Positions 1-11,834 of a stretch of 64,000 nucleotides of DNA are shown one piece after another. The position numbers and the translations under genes were made by a program. Position 1 is the stretch's first letter. Each line of letters begins with the position of its first letter. This DNA is from Clostridium sp. CAG:567 (GTDB lineage: Bacteria > Bacillota > Clostridia > TANB77 > CAG-508), in assembly GCA_000437855.1 (NCBI GenBank), contig FR902170.1, positions 28,692-92,691 of the forward strand. The letters are read 5' to 3'. The notes under the pieces were generated by a model, which was not told where the DNA came from, did no database searches, and saw only the letters and a list, made by a program, of their open reading frames with translations.

Positions 1-1707
1 TCAGTATTAACAATAATTGTACTTGCAATTGGAATAATGGCAATTGTGAATGAATTAAACTTACATTATAAAATAGAAGAAATTAGTGAATATAATTATT
101 TTATTTTGGAACAAAATGGTAAATATGGAGTAATTGATAAAAGTGGTAATATTGTAATTGATGCAGATTATGAAGCAGTTCAAATTCCAAATCCATCTAA
201 GGATATATTTATATGTATAAAAGAATACAATCAAGATACAAAAGAGTATGCTACTGTTGTATATAATGGCAAGAAAGAAGAAATCCTATCAAATTATAAT
301 AATGTACAAGCAGTTGCGATTTTTACTAATATAAACTCAACACCTTATGAAAGAAGTGTATTAACTTATAAAGAAAATGGAAAATATGGGTTGATTGACT
401 TACAAGGAAAAGAAATAACTAAACCAATTTATGATGAGATTTCTAGTATTAATTATAAAGAAGGAACATTTTTAGTAAAACAAAACGAACAAGAAGGCAT
501 AATCAACATGAAAGGAAAGACTATTATTAAATGTGAGTATGAAAGTGTAACCTCTGATAATTATTATAATGAGGACCAAAATAATGAAAAAGCAGGTTTT
601 ATTGTTAGCAAAAAAACAGATGATGGATATAGATATGGATATATTAATTATAGAGGTTCTAAAATTGTAAAACCTATTTTTACACAATTAGAAAGAGTAA
701 CAGAAATAAGCGATGACAAAAATATATACTTTATAGCATTTAAGGATGGACAAGCAGGATTATTAAAAAATAACAAGGAAATAGTAAACTACGAATATGA
801 AGATATACAATATAATGTACTAAGTGATGTATTTATAATTCAAAGAAATGGAAAATACGGAGCTAATACAAGAGAAGGAAAAACAATTTTATATCCAGAA
901 TATTCAAGTGTTTATACCGGTGGAATATATATAAATGCTGTAAAAGATAATGTAATAGAAGTATTTGATTTACAAGGCAATAAAATAGAAACAGATATAA
1001 ACAGTAAAATAAAAACAGAGAATTCTAACTATTATATAACAATTGATAAAAATAATATTTATAAAGTCGTAGATGCAAATGAAAATGTAATTATAAATAA
1101 TGATTATAATTATATGGAGTATTTACCAGGAGATTATTTTATAGTAGCACGTGACTCAAAAAATGGTGTTGTAGATATTAATGGAAAATCTGTTATAGAA
1201 CTTAAATATGATAGTATTTCAAGAATTAATGAAACAAACATATTACAAGCAGAAACTAATAAATCAATAGAACTATATAATCTAAATATGAAAAAAATAA
1301 CAACAATGAGTAATGCAACTATAAAAGAAGTAAAAGATGATAAAGAGTATATATTATTATTTTCAGAAAATGATTTTAAATATCTTGACAAAGATGGAAA
1401 TATATTAAAAGCACAAGAATTATTTAAAGAAAACAATCTATTTGCTAAAAATGTAAATGGCAAGTGGGGATTTGTTGATAAAAATGGTAATTTAAAAGTA
1501 CAAAATAAATATGAAGTGGTAACAGACTTTAACAAATATGGATTTGCGGGAATAAAAAAAGATGGCAAATGGGGAGTAATAGATCAAGAAGGACATATAG
1601 TACAAGAACCAATATATGAGTTAAAATGGAACATGCCAGAATTTATAGGAAAATATTATAGAGTAAATGCATGGTATGGAGATGCTAGATTTAGTGATAA
1701 AGTATAA
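1..1707 (+). CDS. WG-repeat (KWG-type) protein, 5' end cut by window edge
   Basis: Frame 1 is open from nt 1 (SVLTIIVLAIGIMAIV looks like a membrane anchor). Many copies of the GKYG(V/L)ID..G..(I/V)I.P.Y repeat typical of WG_beta_rep proteins. Stop at 1705-1707. Confidence 0.6.
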   Translation, partial: SVLTIIVLAIGIMAIVNELNLHYKIEEISEYNYFILEQNGKYGVIDKSGNIVIDADYEAVQIPNPSKDIFICIKEYNQDTKEYATVVYNGKKEEILSNYNNVQAVAIFTNINSTPYERSVLTYKENGKYGLIDLQGKEITKPIYDEISSINYKEGTFLVKQNEQEGIINMKGKTIIKCEYESVTSDNYYNEDQNNEKAGFIVSKKTDDGYRYGYINYRGSKIVKPIFTQLERVTEISDDKNIYFIAFKDGQAGLLKNNKEIVNYEYEDIQYNVLSDVFIIQRNGKYGANTREGKTILYPEYSSVYTGGIYINAVKDNVIEVFDLQGNKIETDINSKIKTENSNYYITIDKNNIYKVVDANENVIINNDYNYMEYLPGDYFIVARDSKNGVVDINGKSVIELKYDSISRINETNILQAETNKSIELYNLNMKKITTMSNATIKEVKDDKEYILLFSENDFKYLDKDGNILKAQELFKENNLFAKNVNGKWGFVDKNGNLKVQNKYEVVTDFNKYGFAGIKKDGKWGVIDQEGHIVQEPIYELKWNMPEFIGKYYRVNAWYGDARFSDKV

Positions 1708-2993: not shown

Positions 2994-4254
2994 ATGAAAA
3001 CGATTGTAATAGGTGGCGGACCAGCAGGAATGATGTCAGCTATTGAAGCAAGTAATATTCGGAAATAGTGTTATACTTTTAGAAAAAATGGATTCATTAG
3101 GAAAAAAACTATTAATAACTGGAAAAGGCAGATGTAATATTACAAGTTCACTTCCGATTGAAGATTTTATACAAAACGTACCAGGAAATGGTATATTTTT
3201 GTATAGTAGTTTTAATAATTTTACAAATAAAGATATAATAAAAATGCTTGAAGAAGAGGGTTTAAAAGTAAAAGAAGAAAGAGGACATAGAATTTTTCCA
3301 ATTACAGATAGCTCAAAAGATGTTTTAAATGTATTAGTAAGGTTATTAAAAAGGTCAAATGTAAAAATTGAAACAAATGCAAAAGTGGAGAAAATCTTAA
3401 CAGAGAATGAAAAAATTGTAGGAGTGCAGGCAGTTATAGATGGAAAAGTTAGAACTATAAATGCTGATAAAGTAATTTTAGCTACCGGTGGTATGAGTTA
3501 TCCGGTAACAGGTTCAAATGGTGATGGGTATGAACTAGCAAAAGAACTTGGACATACTATAACTAAGATTAAGCCATCACTAATACCATTAACAGCTCAA
3601 AGAGAATCACTAGAAATATGCAAAGAATTACAAGGACTTAGTTTAATAAATGTATCAATAAAATTGATAGACACACAAAAAAATAAAATAATATATGATG
3701 ATTTTGGAGAAATGTTATTTACACATTGGGGTGTATCAGGTCCAATAATTTTAAGTGGATCAGCACACTTACTAAGATATAAAAATGTTGAGGAATTATT
3801 AAAAGAAGGAAAAATTGAATTAAGCATAAATTTAAAACCAGCACTTACAGAAGAAAAACTAGAAAATAGAATATTAAGGGATTTTGAAGCACAAAAAAAT
3901 AAGGAATTTAAAAATAGTTTAAATGAATTATTACCTAAAAAGCTAATAGAACCTATAATTAGAATGTCTGGAATAGATGAAAATAAAAAAGTAAATTCTA
4001 TAACCAAACAAGAAAGAAAAAATTTAGTAAAGTTACTTCAAGATTTTAGAATAAAAATAAATGGATTTAGACCAATTAATGAAGCAATTGTAACCTCTGG
4101 AGGAATTTCTGTAAAAGAAATAAATCCTAAAACAATGGAATCAAAAATAATACATGGACTATATTTTGCAGGAGAGATTATTGATGTAGATGCATATACT
4201 GGAGGATTTAATTTGCAAATTGCATGGTCTACAGGGTATACAGCTGGAATGTAA
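2994..4254 (+). pseudogene. HI0933/YhiN/BaiN-type FAD-dependent oxidoreductase, interrupted by a +1 frameshift near nt 3060
   Basis: ATG 2994 (RBS GAAGAGG 2981-2987) encodes MKTIVIGGGPAGMMSAIEASNIRK*, i.e. the GxGxxG FAD fold, and stops at 3066-3068. The rest of the family (GNSVILLEK..LGKKLLITGKGRCNIT...GGFNLQ.AW.TG) runs in frame 1 from 3061. Deleting C3060 gives the continuous read AIEASNIGNSVILLEK. Confidence 0.8.
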
Positions 4255-5014: not shown

Positions 5015-5833
5015 GTGAATGAAAAAATTACAGTATTAGTAGCAGATGACAATAGTGACTTTACTATGACATTATCAAATTATTTAGAAAAAGAGGAACA
5101 AATTCAGATTGTTGGAATTGCTAGAGATGGTAATGAAGCCTATGATATGGCAGTAAATTTAAAGCCAGATATATTACTACTTGATATAATAATGCCACAT
5201 CTTGATGGACTTGGAGTCTTAGAAAAATTAGGAGAAACTAATTTAGAAAAAAGACCATTATCAATTATATTATCTGCAGTAGGACAAGACAAAATAACTC
5301 AAAAAGCAATAGCACTAGGAGCACAATATTACATTGTAAAACCTTTTGATATTAATGTATTAATAAAAAGAATGAAGGAGTTAAAAAATTATCAACCTGT
5401 TCAGTTTAAAGGTGGATTTGTTACTAGAGAAATAAAGTCACAATATATAGACATTGCACCAGATCAAAAGAAAAACGAAGAAAACTTAGAAGCACTTGTA
5501 ACTAATATCATTCACGAAGTTGGAGTACCAGCTCATATAAAAGGATATCAATATTTAAGAGAAGCAATAATGATGGTAGTTAAAGATACCGAAGTAATAA
5601 ATCAAATTACAAAACAACTTTATCCAGAAATTGCATGTAAATATAAAACCACCCCAAGTAGAGTAGAAAGAGCAATCCGTCATGCAATAGAAGTAGCATG
5701 GGGAAGAGGAGAGCAAAGTGCAGTTGAAAACATATTTGGCTACACAGTATCAGCAGCCAAAGGAAAGCCAACCAATAGCGAATTTATAGCGATGATTAGC
5801 GACAAATTAAGGCTTGAATTAAAAAGTGCATAA
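5015..5833 (+). CDS. spo0A: Sporulation master regulator Spo0A
   Basis: REC domain (VLVADDN...[17 protein letters not shown]) plus the diagnostic Spo0A C-terminal domain ([17 protein letters not shown]..., [21 protein letters not shown]). GTG start with RBS AGGGGGA. Confidence 0.95.
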
Positions 5834-5884: not shown

Positions 5885-6073
5885 TTATTCTTCTTCAAGA
5901 TTTTCAAGACCAAATTCAATAATTTGATTTATGACGCTATTAAAACTTATATTATTTTTTTCAGCAAGATCATTTATTTTATCAAAAGTTTTTCCACTTA
6001 TTCTTATAGTTCTAGTAATAGTATCATTCCTTTTAGAAAAGTTTAAAATTTTTAATTTTTCCATTTCAATCAC
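5885..6073 (-). CDS. Small ribbon-helix-helix (CopG/Arc-like) DNA-binding protein
   Basis: 62 aa. The pattern RTIRISGKTFDKINDLAEKNNISFNSVINQIIEFGL fits a beta-strand plus two helices, as in RHH proteins. Divergent from the nrdD-like gene. Confidence 0.4.
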   Translation of the reverse strand: MIEMEKLKILNFSKRNDTITRTIRISGKTFDKINDLAEKNNISFNSVINQIIEFGLENLEEE

Positions 6074-6167: not shown

Positions 6168-6196
6168 TTGACTAATAATTATATGGAATATATAAT
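6168..6196 (+). promoter_or_regulatory. Sigma-A-type promoter upstream of the nrdD-like gene
   Basis: TTGACT (6168-6173), 17 nt spacer, TATAAT (6191-6196). A second TTGACT at 6140-6145 is preceded by the same TTTAACAAAAA motif. Confidence 0.45.
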
Positions 6197-6226
6197 TAAC
6201 ATAGCTCAAAGCGAGGAGGATCAATA

Positions 6227-8398
6227 ATGTTAATTGAAGTTCCAGAAAAAGTTGCTAAAAAAATAGTTGTAAAAAGAGACGGAAAAAAGGTTGAGTTTGA
6301 TGGTGCAAAAATTGCACTTGCTATTCAAAAAGGATTTGGAGACATTGTAGGAAATGAAGATTCTAAAACAGCTAAATATAATGAGACAGATGTTAATAAA
6401 GTATACAGTAAGGTATTAGGAAGAATACAAAAAATAGATTCAGAAAAAATAAAAATTGAAGAAATTCAAGATTTAATAGAAGAAGAACTGAAAAATAACG
6501 GATACCAAGATGTATATGGTGCTTTTGCTAGCTATCGTGAAAAAAGAGCACAATCAAGGCAATTATTTTTTGATGAAAAAAAGCAACATAAATTTCTAAA
6601 AGCACTAGAAAACTTAGGACTTAAGTCAGCTAATGTAGAAGAAAACAAAAGAGAAAAAAATAATGATAGTGAAACAACTATGGGCAATATGTTTCAATAT
6701 GCAAGTGCAATCTCAAGGCAGTTTGCTATAACATATTTAATGAAAAAGAAATTTTCAGAAGCACATGAAAATGGAGACATATATATTCATGGAATGAACT
6801 TTATTCCAACAGGTACTACCAGTTCATGTCAAATTGATATAAGTAAATTATATGATGATGGTTTTTATATAGGAAATAATTATATAAAAGAGCCAAATGG
6901 AATAATTGCATACTCGAATTTAGCAACAGTTGCAATACAAGCAAATCAAAATGATCAATATGGTGAACAAAGTATACCTTCATTTGACTATTATATGGCA
7001 CCAGGAGTTCTTAAAACATTTAAAAAGCAGTTAAAACAATTGATTTTCGATTATTTAGAGTTAACAGATTTTGATAAATTTATAGCTGTAAATGGAATAG
7101 AAAGAGAAATTGATAAAATAAATACTATTGAGTTTGATTCAAATATATTTGATAAATATTGCAGAGATTCACAAGAGCTTAAAAGAATGTTTAAAATTGC
7201 TTATACTAAAGCGATTGAAAAAACTAAAAAACTAACAGATCAAGCAATGGAATCATTTATATATGACTTAAATACAATTCATTCAAGAGCAGGAAATAAG
7301 TTACCATTTTCATGTATCAATTTTGGAACAGATACATCACCAGAAGGTAGAATGGTAATTAAATCAATATTAAAAGCAATTAATAATGGACTTGGAAATG
7401 GAGAAGAATGTGCTTTTCCAGTAGCAATTTTTAAAATAAAAAAAGGTACAAACTATAATGAAAAAGATGTAAATTATGACTTGCTTGAATTGGCATGTTC
7501 TGTAACGGTAAAAAGAAAAAATATTAATTTTTCATTTTTAGATGCAGAATTTAATATAAATGATTATAAACAAGGAGACTATGATACAGAAGTTTCATAT
7601 ACAGGAATAGGTAATAGAATACTAGAAAATGTAGTTGATTCTAATAAAGCAATATCTGTTGGTAGAGGAGTTCTATCAGCAACAACAATAAATTTACCAA
7701 GATTAGGAATAAAGCATGGAACTATTTCAAATAATAAAACAGATTTAAAAGGATTCTTTTTTGAACTTGAAGAAAAAATGGACTTAGTAAAAGATCAATT
7801 GTTAGAAAGATATGAAATACAATGCAAAAAAAATATATATAATTTTCCTTTTTTACTAGAACAAAATGTTTGGATAGACAGTGAACGATTAAAAGACAAT
7901 GATAATTTGAGAAAAGCACTAAAGCATGGTATTTTAAATATAGGATTTAGTGGATTAGCAGAATGCTTGAAAGCTTTAACAGGAGAACATCAAGGAGAAT
8001 CAAAAGATGCTCAAAAACTAGGAATTAAAATTGTAGAATTCATGAGAAAAAAATGTGATGAATATTCTGAAAAGTATAATTTGAATTTTAATCTAGTTGC
8101 AACGCCTAAAGAGGAAATATCAAATAAATTTATTAAATTAGATCAGGCTATTTATGGAAAACTAAAGGGTATAACAGATAAAAATCGTTATACTAACTCT
8201 TTTCATATACCGGAAGGATATAAAATTTCTGTAATAGATAAAATAAAATTAGAATCACAATATCACTGCTTAACAAATGGTGGACATATTGAAATAGTAC
8301 AAATAAAAAATGGAGATACAAAAGATATAATGAGTGTTATAAAAACTATGAAAGAAAATGGAATTGGTTATGGAAAGATAATTAATATGGAGAAATAA
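6227..8398 (+). CDS. Anaerobic ribonucleotide reductase (NrdD) homologue with ATP-cone but no thiyl Cys and no glycyl-radical C-terminus (likely non-catalytic)
   Basis: ATP-cone (VVKRDGKKVEFDGAKIALAIQKGF). NrdD blocks IYIHGMNF...SSCQIDI, GRGVLSATTINLPRLGI, RYTNSFHIP and TNGGHIEIV are present. YTGIGNRIL stands where E. coli has TPMGCRSFL. The protein ends at GIGYGKIINMEK*, before any CxxC...CxxC / RVCGY region. Confidence 0.8.
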   Translation: MLIEVPEKVAKKIVVKRDGKKVEFDGAKIALAIQKGFGDIVGNEDSKTAKYNETDVNKVYSKVLGRIQKIDSEKIKIEEIQDLIEEELKNNGYQDVYGAFASYREKRAQSRQLFFDEKKQHKFLKALENLGLKSANVEENKREKNNDSETTMGNMFQYASAISRQFAITYLMKKKFSEAHENGDIYIHGMNFIPTGTTSSCQIDISKLYDDGFYIGNNYIKEPNGIIAYSNLATVAIQANQNDQYGEQSIPSFDYYMAPGVLKTFKKQLKQLIFDYLELTDFDKFIAVNGIEREIDKINTIEFDSNIFDKYCRDSQELKRMFKIAYTKAIEKTKKLTDQAMESFIYDLNTIHSRAGNKLPFSCINFGTDTSPEGRMVIKSILKAINNGLGNGEECAFPVAIFKIKKGTNYNEKDVNYDLLELACSVTVKRKNINFSFLDAEFNINDYKQGDYDTEVSYTGIGNRILENVVDSNKAISVGRGVLSATTINLPRLGIKHGTISNNKTDLKGFFFELEEKMDLVKDQLLERYEIQCKKNIYNFPFLLEQNVWIDSERLKDNDNLRKALKHGILNIGFSGLAECLKALTGEHQGESKDAQKLGIKIVEFMRKKCDEYSEKYNLNFNLVATPKEEISNKFIKLDQAIYGKLKGITDKNRYTNSFHIPEGYKISVIDKIKLESQYHCLTNGGHIEIVQIKNGDTKDIMSVIKTMKENGIGYGKIINMEK

Positions 8399-8400
8399 AA

Positions 8401-8928: not shown

Positions 8929-8997
8929 AATAAAAAAATAAAAAGAAAATAGAATAATTTAAAAATAAACATCAAACAATAAGTAATGGTGATTAGA

Positions 8998-9243
8998 ATG
9001 AAAATATCATGGATTAAATATGATCAAGATAAAAAGAGTTTTCGTCTACCAGAAGCCTTAGGGTTTGATGTTTTTTATTTATCAGATTTAGAACAGACTG
9101 ATAAAAAAATGAAAGAATTAATAAAGAATAACTATGATACAATAGTTATTTCAAATGAAGTTGCTGGTTTTTCAGAAGATATTATAAAAAAATATCAAAA
9201 AAGTAAGAATATAAAAATAGTAATTTCTTTGGATAAAGAATAA
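8998..9243 (+). CDS. Small protein resembling V-type ATPase subunit F (ATP-synt_F fold), orphan
   Basis: FRLPEALGFDVFYL..EQTDKKMKELIKNNYDTIVISNEVAGFSEDIIKKY resembles Enterococcus NtpG FRLFGFDV....[32 protein letters not shown] (from memory). The ATG at 8998 has RBS GGTGA. The 8986 start is an alternative. Confidence 0.35.
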   Translation: MKISWIKYDQDKKSFRLPEALGFDVFYLSDLEQTDKKMKELIKNNYDTIVISNEVAGFSEDIIKKYQKSKNIKIVISLDKE

Positions 9244-9255
9244 TAAAAATATAAT

Positions 9256-9696
9256 ATGAAAAAAATAGACTATACTTTTGTATGTATTGGAACTAATAGA
9301 ATAATATCAGATTCATTTGGCCCTAGAGTAGGTAAAAAACTTAAGCAGGTCTTTTATAAAAATGAGAATATAAACGTTTATGGAACAATGGAAAATCCGA
9401 TTCATCTAAAAAATGTTGAATATTTTCTAAAAAAAATGGAAAATAAAAATCAAATAATTTTAATAGATTCTGCCATTGGAAGAAAGGAAGATATAGGAAA
9501 TACTTATGTAAATAGAGGTGGTATGGAAATAGGTAAAGCATTTAATCATAGTATATATATTCCTGCAAATATAAATATAAAAACTGTAATTGGTGCAAAA
9601 GAATATATGCCAAATTATAGTATATACCAAATAGAACAAATAGCAAATAAAGTTGCTTATAAAATTGTTCAGATTGTCTTTGAATTATCTGTATAA
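9256..9696 (+). CDS. yyaC: Putative spore protease YyaC (DUF1256)
   Basis: The N-terminal F(V)CIGT.R...DS.GP.VG motif is characteristic of YyaC. 146 aa. Confidence 0.7.
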   Translation: MKKIDYTFVCIGTNRIISDSFGPRVGKKLKQVFYKNENINVYGTMENPIHLKNVEYFLKKMENKNQIILIDSAIGRKEDIGNTYVNRGGMEIGKAFNHSIYIPANINIKTVIGAKEYMPNYSIYQIEQIANKVAYKIVQIVFELSV

Positions 9697-10171: not shown

Positions 10172-11125
10172 TTGGAAAGAATATTATCACAAGAAGAAAG
10201 AATAAGAAGAGCAGAGGAAATATACTACCGTAGAAAATTAAATAATGGTGATATTAGAATGCCTAGTTCTCAGGTTAGAGATAAAACTGAAAAAAGGCAA
10301 TTTTCTTTATATAGAAAGATGGCAATACAAATATTAATATGTATTTTAATTTACTTAATTTTTTCATTAATTAAAGAAGCAAATTATTTATTTTCTGAAA
10401 ATATTATAAATAAAACAAAAGAATTTTTAAATACAGACATTAATTTCACGATAATTTCTTCAAATATAAATGAGTTTTGGAAAAATAATAAAGATAAATT
10501 TAAAATTTTTACGAACAATGAAGAAACCAATTTAGAAAATACTAACAATGAACAAAACAATGATGATAATGAACAGAACAAGAAAGAAGACGAAAAAAAT
10601 AATAAAGAAAATAATAATCAAAATGAACAAGAGAATAATACAACCACAGGAATAGGTGGGGCAAGCTCTAATGAAAATACTCAAGTTGATGAAAAAACTA
10701 AAAAAAGTCAAATGGAACTCGATGCAGAATACATAAAAAAGAATTTTAAAATGCAATTACCAGTAAAAGCAAAAGTTACTTCAAGCTATGGAAAAAGAGA
10801 AGAGGATAAAATTGTTTCTGCAGATCATTATGGTATAGATTTGGGAGTGGTTATAGGAACTACTGTTGTTGCGGCGATGGAAGGTAAAGTTACATTAGTA
10901 TCAAATGAAGGAGAATATGGAACTCATGTAAAAATTGTAAATAAGGATATAACAACTATTTATGCACATTGCAGTAAAATTTTAGTGAAAAAAGGTGCAA
11001 AAATTAAAAAAGGACAAAAAATAGCTTTATCAGGAAATACTGGAAAAACTACAGGTCCACATTTGCACTTTGAAATAAGAAGAAGCACAAGGACAGTTGA
11101 TCCAGCTCTAGTGCTAAATTTTTAA
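10172..11125 (+). CDS. M23 (LytM-type) metallopeptidase, SpoIVFA-position partner of the M50 protease
   Basis: C-terminal HYGIDLG...GTHVKI...YAHCS...G.KI.KGQKIALSGNTGKTTGPHLHFEIR, with intact HxxxD and HxH. N-terminal TM and a low-complexity N/E/K linker. TTG start with RBS AAGGAAGAGGTG. Confidence 0.8.
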   Translation: MERILSQEERIRRAEEIYYRRKLNNGDIRMPSSQVRDKTEKRQFSLYRKMAIQILICILIYLIFSLIKEANYLFSENIINKTKEFLNTDINFTIISSNINEFWKNNKDKFKIFTNNEETNLENTNNEQNNDDNEQNKKEDEKNNKENNNQNEQENNTTTGIGGASSNENTQVDEKTKKSQMELDAEYIKKNFKMQLPVKAKVTSSYGKREEDKIVSADHYGIDLGVVIGTTVVAAMEGKVTLVSNEGEYGTHVKIVNKDITTIYAHCSKILVKKGAKIKKGQKIALSGNTGKTTGPHLHFEIRRSTRTVDPALVLNF

Positions 11126-11171: not shown

Positions 11172-11834
11172 ATGAGCGTAAAAATTGACCTAAAAATCTT
11201 TTTATTTGCAATTATATTTTATTTTACTAAACAAATTAAAATATATGCTTTATTGATGATATTAGCATTAGTACATGAATTAGGACACTTAGTGTGTGGA
11301 ATATGTTTGGGACTCAAATTAAAAAGTATAAAAATAACGCCAGTAGGATTTCAAATATTATTTAAAAATAATATACAGGATTATAATATTAAAATACAAA
11401 AAGGTAATGAAATTTGTATAAAAAAAATAGCAATTGCGTTTGCAGGGCCACTGGTTAATATATTTATTGCAATAATTGCTTTTTTTATGCCTGAAAACAT
11501 TGTGGCACAAAAAGAAACAATAATATATGCAAATTTGATGTTGGCAATATTTAATTTATTACCAATATATCCACTAGATGGTGGAAGAATAGTAAAAGAA
11601 ATAATAATGATAAAAGATGGAACAAAATTAGCTTATGAAAAAATAAATAATATATCTAAAGTAACAGTTATAATAATTACAATAATTACGTCTATAATAA
11701 TTTTAAAAATACATAATATAGCAATTTTAATAATATTAACATATTTATGGTATTTAAACATAAAAAATGAAAAGGAATATAAGGTAAAATGTAGAATAAT
11801 AAGTGCAGTAAAAGGAGGTTATGTTGACATATAG
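11172..11834 (+). CDS. M50 site-2 protease, SpoIVFB-like (no CBS domain)
   Basis: HELGH in TM helix 2 and NLLPIYPLDGGRI (NxxPxxxLDG) motifs. Polytopic membrane protein directly after the M23 gene, as in spoIVFA-spoIVFB. Confidence 0.7.
   Translation: MSVKIDLKIFLFAIIFYFTKQIKIYALLMILALVHELGHLVCGICLGLKLKSIKITPVGFQILFKNNIQDYNIKIQKGNEICIKKIAIAFAGPLVNIFIAIIAFFMPENIVAQKETIIYANLMLAIFNLLPIYPLDGGRIVKEIIMIKDGTKLAYEKINNISKVTVIIITIITSIIILKIHNIAILIILTYLWYLNIKNEKEYKVKCRIISAVKGGYVDI

Follow-up and report, generated by a model that had tools for sequence, protein, structure and literature searches.

A catalytically dead homologue of anaerobic ribonucleotide reductase with a tightly conserved ATP-cone in gut Clostridia

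Introduction

Why should a bacterium keep a large ribonucleotide reductase (RNR) homologue that has lost the residues on which the reaction depends? The question is raised by a gene of Clostridium sp. CAG:567 (assembly GCA_000437855.1), found in a stretch of 64,000 nucleotides (nt) of contig FR902170.1 (positions 28,692 to 92,691), which we call the window. The gene, at 6227..8398 on the forward strand, derives from nrdD, the gene for the class III (anaerobic) RNR, and we use NrdDx as a working name for the encoded pseudoenzyme. NrdDx is a homologue of NrdD with an ATP-cone and a complete ten-stranded alpha/beta barrel, and it can neither carry a glycyl or thiyl radical nor pass one on. We favour, with moderate confidence, the reading that it is an ATP/dATP-sensing pseudoenzyme that arose from a class III RNR of the formate type, and in which the tightest constraint now lies in the cone.

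Results

Loss of the catalytic machinery

The best solved relative of NrdDx is the NrdD of Prevotella copri (PcNrdD, PDB 8p23), where residues 8-677 of the 743-residue chain align with residues 13-718 of our protein; the numbers of the chain are those of PMC11226230 plus 4. The working parts described for PcNrdD are C416, C171, N435, G711, the NxN flap (114-116), the HxHD motif (157-160), the 577-581 loop and loop 2 (304-311) (PMC11226230). The thiyl-radical cysteine is C416 in PcNrdD and C290 in T4 NrdD, and no alignment places a cysteine in the finger loop of NrdDx; all nine cysteines of the protein (residues 201, 312, 363, 395, 424, 533, 580, 610 and 681) lie outside of it. The initial annotation of this DNA had described the change as Cys to Asn. 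The loss of the cysteine stands, but the identity of its substitute depends on the alignment, as a gapped alignment with T4 NrdD puts Asn463 at the position of C290, and ungapped alignments with PcNrdD and with full-length relatives that are 63-72% identical and have YMGCRTR put Ile461 there. Judged from these alignments, Ile461 seems the more likely substitute.

The remaining working parts have fared no better, also when NrdDx is seen together with the other 32 truncated proteins that form its clade (the dead clade, described below) and is compared with 28 active relatives, of which 16 are fused and 12 split. The cysteine of strand beta1 (C171 in PcNrdD, C79 in T4, within TTTC[CM]Q in active relatives) is Ser200, and Asn435 of PcNrdD is Val482. 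Where the active relatives have HIHD, 28 of the 33 members of the dead clade carry Tyr in place of the first His. The NxN flap, invariant in the active relatives, is variable and carries indels in the dead clade, and RENAN aligns with REK-NN in NrdDx. Of the ATPxE loop, NrdDx has ATPKE, and the motif varies across the dead clade. With the glycyl-radical domain, the cysteines, the phosphate binders and the flap lost or degenerate, NrdDx can neither hold a radical nor bind a substrate in the manner of an RNR, and the canonical substrate contacts are gone. The proposal of the initial annotation that the gene encodes a catalytically dead NrdD paralogue is thus upheld, and Ser200, YIHG and Val482 at catalytic positions can be added to the missing domain and loop cysteine.

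The C-terminal end

In PcNrdD the core domain comprises residues 123-671 and the glycyl-radical domain (GRD) residues 676-739 (PMC11226230). NrdDx stops 5 residues past the last aligned position (residue 718, chain residue 677), that is at the boundary between the core and the GRD, and the AlphaFold2 model terminates in the strand 715-721. It had been claimed that the open reading frame (ORF) ends ahead of the zinc ribbon and the glycyl-radical loop, and this agrees with the alignment: there is no Zn ribbon or RxxGY loop in NrdDx, and nothing that resembles a GRD follows downstream in any frame. More than 30 independent assemblies and 33 non-redundant homologues share this end point, so that the truncation is not the result of a frameshift or an assembly error at 8390-8400, which had been named as a possible objection.

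Nor is the missing domain supplied from elsewhere. The genome is 1.24 Mb and 100% complete, and the Gly_radical domain (PF01228) is present only in pyruvate formate-lyase (PFL) on contig C5 and in the true NrdD on contig C20. A separate ORF for the GRD, which would have contradicted the first reading of the gene, was sought in the whole genome by tblastn with fused and free GRD sequences, by a six-frame motif scan and with PF01228, and only the tails of PFL and of the true NrdD were returned; a split enzyme with its GRD in trans is ruled out.

Domains and fold

The Pfam profile NRDD (PF13597) matches NrdDx at 1.6e-135, but only with profile positions 3-504 of 562. To the NCBIfam equivalog PRK07111 the protein aligns with profile positions 3-684 of 746, and the score of 739.7 bits falls short of the cut-off of 764. 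The cut-off of TIGR02487 is passed (415.9 against 326.35), and automatic pipelines would therefore still name the protein NrdD. The AlphaFold2 model (mean predicted local distance difference test score 76.4, predicted template modelling score 0.72) has an intact barrel and superimposes on the core of PcNrdD with a template modelling score of 0.89-0.90 (Foldseek).

Reversed constraint

The ATP-cone that had been noticed at the N-terminus is indeed retained, by its match to PF03477 and by the conservation of the residues that contact the nucleotide. K7, R8, D9, R11, Y83, R87 and R91 of PcNrdD correspond to K16, R17, D18, K20, Y103, R107 and R111 of NrdDx, and the nucleotide-contacting residues are kept in 32-33 of the 33 members of the dead clade.

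We compared the column entropy of the active and the dead group (Table 1), which have similar overall mean identities, 0.75 and 0.70. The catalytic and specificity machinery drifts in the dead clade, while cone, linker and a single surface element vary less than in working enzymes. Cone windows within residues 76-120 drop to 0.12-0.47 bits in the dead clade. The surface element is an insert (residues 271-330) with helices at 286-297 and 305-311 in the AlphaFold2 model; its mean pairwise identity is 0.81 in the dead clade and 0.53 in the active relatives, and it is a candidate for a new interaction surface. Such a reversal is expected if the retained function runs through the ATP-cone, and it is not expected from a new enzyme that reuses the old pocket.

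Table 1. Column entropy (bits) by region in active and dead NrdD proteins
Region	Active	Dead
ATP-cone	1.18	0.65
Helical insert 271-330	1.22	0.51
Core 331-450	0.41	1.20
Cys loop	0.27	1.22
Loop 2 window (346-360)	0.00	1.51
Residues 601-723	0.59	1.23

Distribution, origin and selection

Orthologues of about 720 amino acids (aa), 56-91% identical, are present in about 20 of 24 genomes of the same genus. The related genomes include 'Clostridium sp. CAG:508' and metagenome-assembled genomes (MAGs) of uncultured gut Clostridia from humans and rabbits. Two orthologues are broken, one by an in-frame TAA (G002) and one in G018. Among the 120 best database homologues, those of about 785 aa all have TTTCCQ, YMGCRTR, GRGNLS and an RRITGYLVG tail, and one outlier of 757 aa keeps the motifs and has a tail that stops after the Zn ribbon. 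The homologues of 681-736 aa all lack the tail, and their finger loop is variable, with I, T, Y, N, S, D, E, L, Q or G, and rarely C, at the position of the cysteine.

In the phylogeny the truncated proteins that include NrdDx form one clade (starred in the tree) of 33 non-redundant sequences. Its sister is a full-length protein of 787 aa, P0007, whose gene has nrdG behind it, and the pair is nested among full-length NrdDs. In 11 of 12 windows P0007 resembles the dead clade more closely than other active relatives do, and in the remaining one equally so; it is therefore no mosaic, and a recombinant that only mimics a sister relationship is ruled out. The nearest active relatives of NrdDx are 61-72% identical. 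In the full-length and split relatives that we examined nrdG always lies downstream of nrdD; behind the truncated genes it never does.

The ratio of nonsynonymous to synonymous substitution rates (dN/dS, Nei-Gojobori) is 0.064-0.080 against orthologues that are about 90% identical (dS 0.58-0.72) and 0.12-0.13 against one that is 81% identical. All regions of the protein have values of 0.02-0.23, none above 0.25, and intact ORFs of about 720 aa occur in members of the clade that share as little as 59% pairwise identity. The promoter TTGACT-17-TATAAT precedes 22 of 25 orthologous genes, in flanking DNA that has otherwise diverged; as TTGACTAA...(A)TATATAAT (window 6168-6196; orthologues in L026-L076) it is near-invariant at these 22 of 25 loci. 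In several species it lies 80-110 nt before the start, which gives a long 5' leader. NrdDx is not a pseudogene but under strong purifying selection, and the gene is maintained and, from its signals, very probably expressed. It fits the definition of a pseudoenzyme, in that the catalytic residues are lost and selection and conservation between species are kept.

The live reductase of the genome and the absence of NrdR

A complete nrdD-nrdG pair is present on contig C20. This live NrdD of 719 aa has CMGCRS, CxxC...CxxC and RRTCGY, is followed by nrdG, and is about 25-29% identical to NrdDx. NrdG-like matches are found on C20 and C5 only, none of them in the window, as first noted, and nrdG itself solely beside the nrdD of C20.

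Apart from this live NrdD, NrdDx is the cell's only protein with an ATP-cone. In a survey of the genome and 40 relatives no NrdR was found in the genus, whereas family f2 and G026, which belong to the same order, do have it. All ATP-cone matches of the genus lie in frames of at least 650 aa, except for two fragments that are broken or at contig ends, and matches of the size of NrdR occur only in other families of the order. Class I and II RNRs (PF02867) were not found in 27 related genomes. With neither NrdR nor another class of RNR, the single live NrdD is the sole source of deoxyribonucleoside triphosphates (dNTPs) and lacks the usual transcriptional control. Control of NrdDx by NrdR was likewise rejected, as the genus has no NrdR and no palindrome resembling an NrdR box could be read upstream of the gene; GTGTACA repeats are not conserved in the orthologous upstream regions compared.

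In one relative (G024, 94% complete) the sole match to NrdD or the ATP-cone is a dead protein of the NrdDx type (type 1), and a live NrdD was not detected, probably because of a gap in the MAG; a cell without any live RNR would have to rely on deoxynucleoside salvage.

Independent dead NrdDs and split relatives

NrdDx is not alone in its fate. In three genomes of the genus (G003, G010 and G022) there is no match to type 1, and instead they encode a dead NrdD of a different lineage (type 2). These proteins have 723-727 aa, resemble PcNrdD and are about 35% identical to NrdDx. Within the genus, the absence of type 1 and the presence of type 2 coincide exactly. The type-2 proteins keep the Zn ribbon and stop before the Gly loop, and they have independently lost the thiyl Cys (VMGSRIR, VMRGRTR), the NxN flap, the ATPxE loop, nrdG and the first His of HxHD (IFVHD, IYVHN). 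G019, G005 and G028 encode full-length siblings of these proteins, with QRITGYLVG and nrdG. In G022 the type-2 gene lies just upstream of prs, as does the live nrdDG in our genome (G000).

At least two independent origins within the genus are well supported, one of the NrdDx clade beside P0007 and one of type 2 beside L086/L087. Of the 150 nearest cluster representatives at 50% identity from a library of 1.8 billion proteins, 33 are complete ATP-cone proteins that lack both the Cys and the GRD, and a quick maximum-likelihood tree of 81 sequences requires at least seven changes between alive and dead across the starred branches, a provisional count because of the quick method and the long branches. 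A third dead clade is separate from that of NrdDx in both trees, and its independence depends on the placement of P0007.

Other relatives, 55-57% identical to NrdDx and from gut MAGs of 'uncultured Bacilli/Tenericutes' (L050-L063, L077), have a split nrdD. The large ORF runs through the Zn ribbon (...CPGCGRKEF...CGC*) and stops there, and a separate ORF of about 60 aa with FERIRRVTGYLAG lies between it and nrdG (e.g. L050 8325-8530). The split enzymes keep every catalytic motif.

The DUF4116 gene and the genomic neighbourhood

The positions of all features are collected in Table 2. The ORF after NrdDx had been recognised as a DUF4116 repeat protein, which the match to PF13475 confirms. It begins 3 nt past the stop codon, with GGAG just upstream (the distance is 13-420 nt in other species), and from this arrangement it is probably translationally coupled to NrdDx. 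The operonic link that had been proposed holds only in part. The gene is single copy in the genome and adjoins NrdDx in about 30 loci, but an orthologue is present in 24 of 24 genomes of the genus, including those without NrdDx, and in G022 unrelated genes fill the slot between spo0A and DUF4116. DUF4116 thus does not depend on NrdDx, and an obligate pair is ruled out as far as DUF4116 is concerned; the protein is a conserved neighbour and a candidate partner. The DUF4116 orthologue is cut by a TAA in G007 (G007:C2:51896-52418), and frames of about 120 aa are found in G013, G018 and G021, which suggests that the neighbour is dispensable or decaying in some species.

The location next to spo0A was seen correctly and is syntenic. 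Upstream lie UPF0029, spo0A and a variable slot, and downstream DUF4116, a variable slot, an 85-aa ORF (8986-9243), yyaC (9256-9696), a 117-aa ORF and two peptidases, of the families M23 (10172-11125) and M50 (11172-11834). The 85-aa ORF has a weak match to ATP-synt_F (3.3e-05), yyaC corresponds to DUF1256, and the two peptidases resemble spoIVFA/spoIVFB. Together with spo0A, this block makes it a sporulation-gene neighbourhood.

Two further ideas on the neighbourhood were rejected. A divergent ORF of 62 aa (5885-6073, reverse strand), putatively of the ribbon-helix-helix (RHH) kind, finds no support as a dedicated regulator, as it has no Pfam or PADLOC match and is not conserved beside the orthologues; tblastn recovered it in two related loci only, L026 (36% identity) and L070 (partial). 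Anti-phage defence finds no support, as PADLOC gave no match for NrdDx, DUF4116, the 85-aa ORF or the RHH-like ORF. Further upstream, an HI0933-like flavoprotein ORF (3043-4254) has a TTG start, and its Pfam profile is matched only from position 23.

Table 2. Features of the NrdDx locus and of the type-2 genes (window positions unless a locus is named)
Feature	Position	Strand	Remarks
spo0A, conserved upstream neighbour	5015..5833	+	TIGR02875, 365.8 bits
Sigma-A-type promoter of the nrdD-like gene, TTGACT-17-TATAAT	6168..6196	+	scan score 11/12
Ribosome-binding site GAGGAGG, 8 nt ahead of ATG 6227	6212..6218	+	direct sequence reading
NrdDx, nrdD-derived pseudoenzyme gene, 723 aa	6227..8398	+	Pfam NRDD and ATP-cone
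ATP-cone, residues 13-108	6263..6550	+	PF03477, 2.9e-14
Degenerate NxN active-site flap, REKNND	6650..6667	+	RENAN[IV]D in active relatives
Degenerate triphosphate-binding HxHD, YIHG	6782..6793	+	active relatives all HIHD
Strand beta1 TTSSCQ, catalytic Cys to Ser200	6815..6832	+	residue counting, T4 and P. copri alignments
Helical insert, residues 271-330	7037..7216	+	more conserved in dead clade than in active NrdDs
Finger loop YTGIGNR, no thiyl-radical Cys	7598..7618	+	YMGCRTR in active relatives
GRGVLS, Val482	7661..7678	+	Asn435 of PcNrdD, N311 of T4
Stop codon of NrdDx, at last barrel strand, ahead of Zn ribbon and GRD	8396..8398	+	
DUF4116 repeat protein gene, 175 aa	8401..8928	+	PF13475, 2.9e-46
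Type-2 dead NrdD	L081 4358-6541	-	among G003, G010, G022 loci
Type-2 dead NrdD	L082 4513-6684	+	among G003, G010, G022 loci
Type-2 dead NrdD	L083 4334-6514	-	among G003, G010, G022 loci

Discussion

The history that we propose for NrdDx starts from an ancestral nrdD-nrdG operon, from which nrdG and the Zn-ribbon/glycyl-radical domain disappeared. Constraint then ceased to act on the thiyl Cys loop, the beta1 Cys, HxHD, ATPxE, the NxN flap and loop 2, and the barrel stayed on as a scaffold, while selection tightened on the ATP-cone with all its nucleotide ligands, the linker helix and the insert 271-330, beyond what is seen in working enzymes. The conserved ligand residues suggest that the cone still binds ATP and dATP. 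By analogy with the cones of active NrdDs, the ratio of dATP to ATP might be converted into a conformational or oligomeric change, such as is described for the enzymes of P. copri and S. thermophilus (PMC11226230; PMC12662201), and a partner could read the change through the insert 271-330 or the cone itself. Candidates for this partner are the DUF4116 protein, whose gene is probably co-transcribed, the live NrdD or NrdG, and the sporulation or replication machinery encoded nearby.

Several points weigh against a sensor of this kind. Nucleotide binding is predicted from the sequence, and the taxonomic span of the two groups whose entropies were compared is not the same. Both the s-site hairpin and loop 2 have relaxed in the dead clade, and the NxN flap, which is the normal output element of the cone, is degenerate, so the signalling route must differ from that of active NrdD. 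DUF4116, as a candidate partner, persists in genomes without NrdDx, and heterodimers with a live NrdD of only about 25-29% identity are unlikely.

A wider idea, which we put forward only tentatively, is that dead NrdDs with a cone may be a recurrent class of bacterial ATP/dATP sensors, and that NrdDx could supply a read-out of dNTPs in a genus that has no NrdR and only NrdD as its reductase, either through hetero-oligomers with the live RNR or through a coupling of the dNTP supply to sporulation and replication. The fixed place of the gene between spo0A and yyaC and the spoIVFA-FB-like genes hints at a possible coupling of the status of DNA precursors to decisions under the control of Spo0A.

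NrdDx could also serve the live class III RNR as a regulatory pseudo-subunit, either by cone-driven hetero-oligomers with the NrdD of C20 or by titration of NrdG. This would be a special case of the sensor model in which the partner is named, and we think it unlikely, though not without appeal. A genus in which one NrdD is the only source of dNTPs could have use for such a control, and the cones of dATP-bound PcNrdD are known to dock on the core of another dimer and form tetramers (PMC11226230). Residues 511-525 of NrdDx, roughly aligned with one of the docking helices, have an entropy of 0.47 bits in the dead clade and 0.85 in the active relatives. However, NrdDx and nrdDG lie on different contigs, the low identity of the two proteins speaks against their assembly, and without a GRD the protein has no known handle for NrdG. 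The live partner in the genus is moreover either of the C20 type or of the P. copri type, while type-1 NrdDx is unchanged.

Still less probable, in our opinion, is a neo-functionalised enzyme or ligand-binding protein with a new non-radical activity or a small-molecule ligand in the barrel. The purifying selection on the whole barrel would agree with it, and several barrel motifs are invariant, e.g. YTNSFH, TNGGH and GTD. Conservation is however lowest in the former active-site elements, which also have indels, a new invariant polar cluster confined to the dead clade was not seen there, and what is best conserved is the cone and the surface insert.

Two last explanations are highly improbable. 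A split enzyme that receives its GRD in trans, as in the two-piece NrdDs of gut Bacilli among its close relatives, is refuted already by the missing thiyl Cys, and true split NrdDs also keep the Zn ribbon, YMGCRTR, HIHD, RENAN and nrdG, none of which NrdDx has, in a genome with no GRD mini-ORF. A decaying pseudogene or an assembly artefact, which the truncated C-terminus, the PRK07111 score below the equivalog cut-off and the broken orthologues in G002 and G018 might suggest, is at odds with a dN/dS of about 0.07, the intact ORFs across the clade, the conserved promoter and ribosome-binding site, and the shared end point.

The ATP/dATP-sensing pseudoenzyme that we favour would, if true, be the first pseudoenzyme family found for a glycyl-radical enzyme in the literature that we searched, where we found no description of a catalytically dead NrdD, of any such glycyl-radical pseudoenzyme or of a function of DUF4116. 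Dead NrdDs pass TIGR02487 and Pfam NRDD and are therefore annotated as 'anaerobic ribonucleoside-triphosphate reductase', so that RNRs are overcounted in gut Clostridia and reconstructions of metabolism may be misled. The family is also a natural experiment that separates the allosteric from the catalytic parts of NrdD.

Comparison with known systems

PcNrdD (PDB 8P23), an enzyme of the PRK07111 type, has the same order of ATP-cone, linker and ten-stranded barrel as NrdDx at 34-37% identity, and the ligand residues of its cone are identical or conservatively replaced. NrdDx differs in that the Zn ribbon, the GRD, the thiyl Cys, the beta1 Cys and the nrdG partner are missing, HxHD, NxN, loop 2 and ATPxE are degenerate, and the pattern of constraint is inverted. 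The large subunit of the two-piece NrdDs (L050-L063) likewise ends before the Gly loop, a situation that also recalls GrcA/YfiD, the spare part of PFL, but these NrdDs have their catalytic motifs, Zn ribbon, small GRD ORF and nrdG, all absent here.

Dead RNR subunits are already known for class I, while we found no paper that describes a dead NrdD of class III. Catalytically inactive homologues of class I RNR are the R1 homologues of betaherpesviruses (M45/UL45) and Rnr4 of yeast, which like NrdDx have lost catalytic residues and are kept by selection, and which have non-catalytic roles. They belong to another class of RNR and to eukaryotic or viral settings, and they are not known to keep the ATP-cone as their conserved module.

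ATP-cones are the universal on/off switch of ribonucleotide reductases, and outside of these enzymes they are known to work in NrdR. NrdR and NrdDx are both non-catalytic, and the working part of NrdR is an ATP-cone that reads ATP and dATP. NrdR is however a protein of about 150 aa with a Zn-ribbon DNA-binding domain, whereas NrdDx has no DNA-binding domain and keeps a barrel of 600 aa. If our reading is true, these repeatedly evolved shells of NrdD, with only the cone under tight selection, would be a second way of reusing the ATP-cone sensor.

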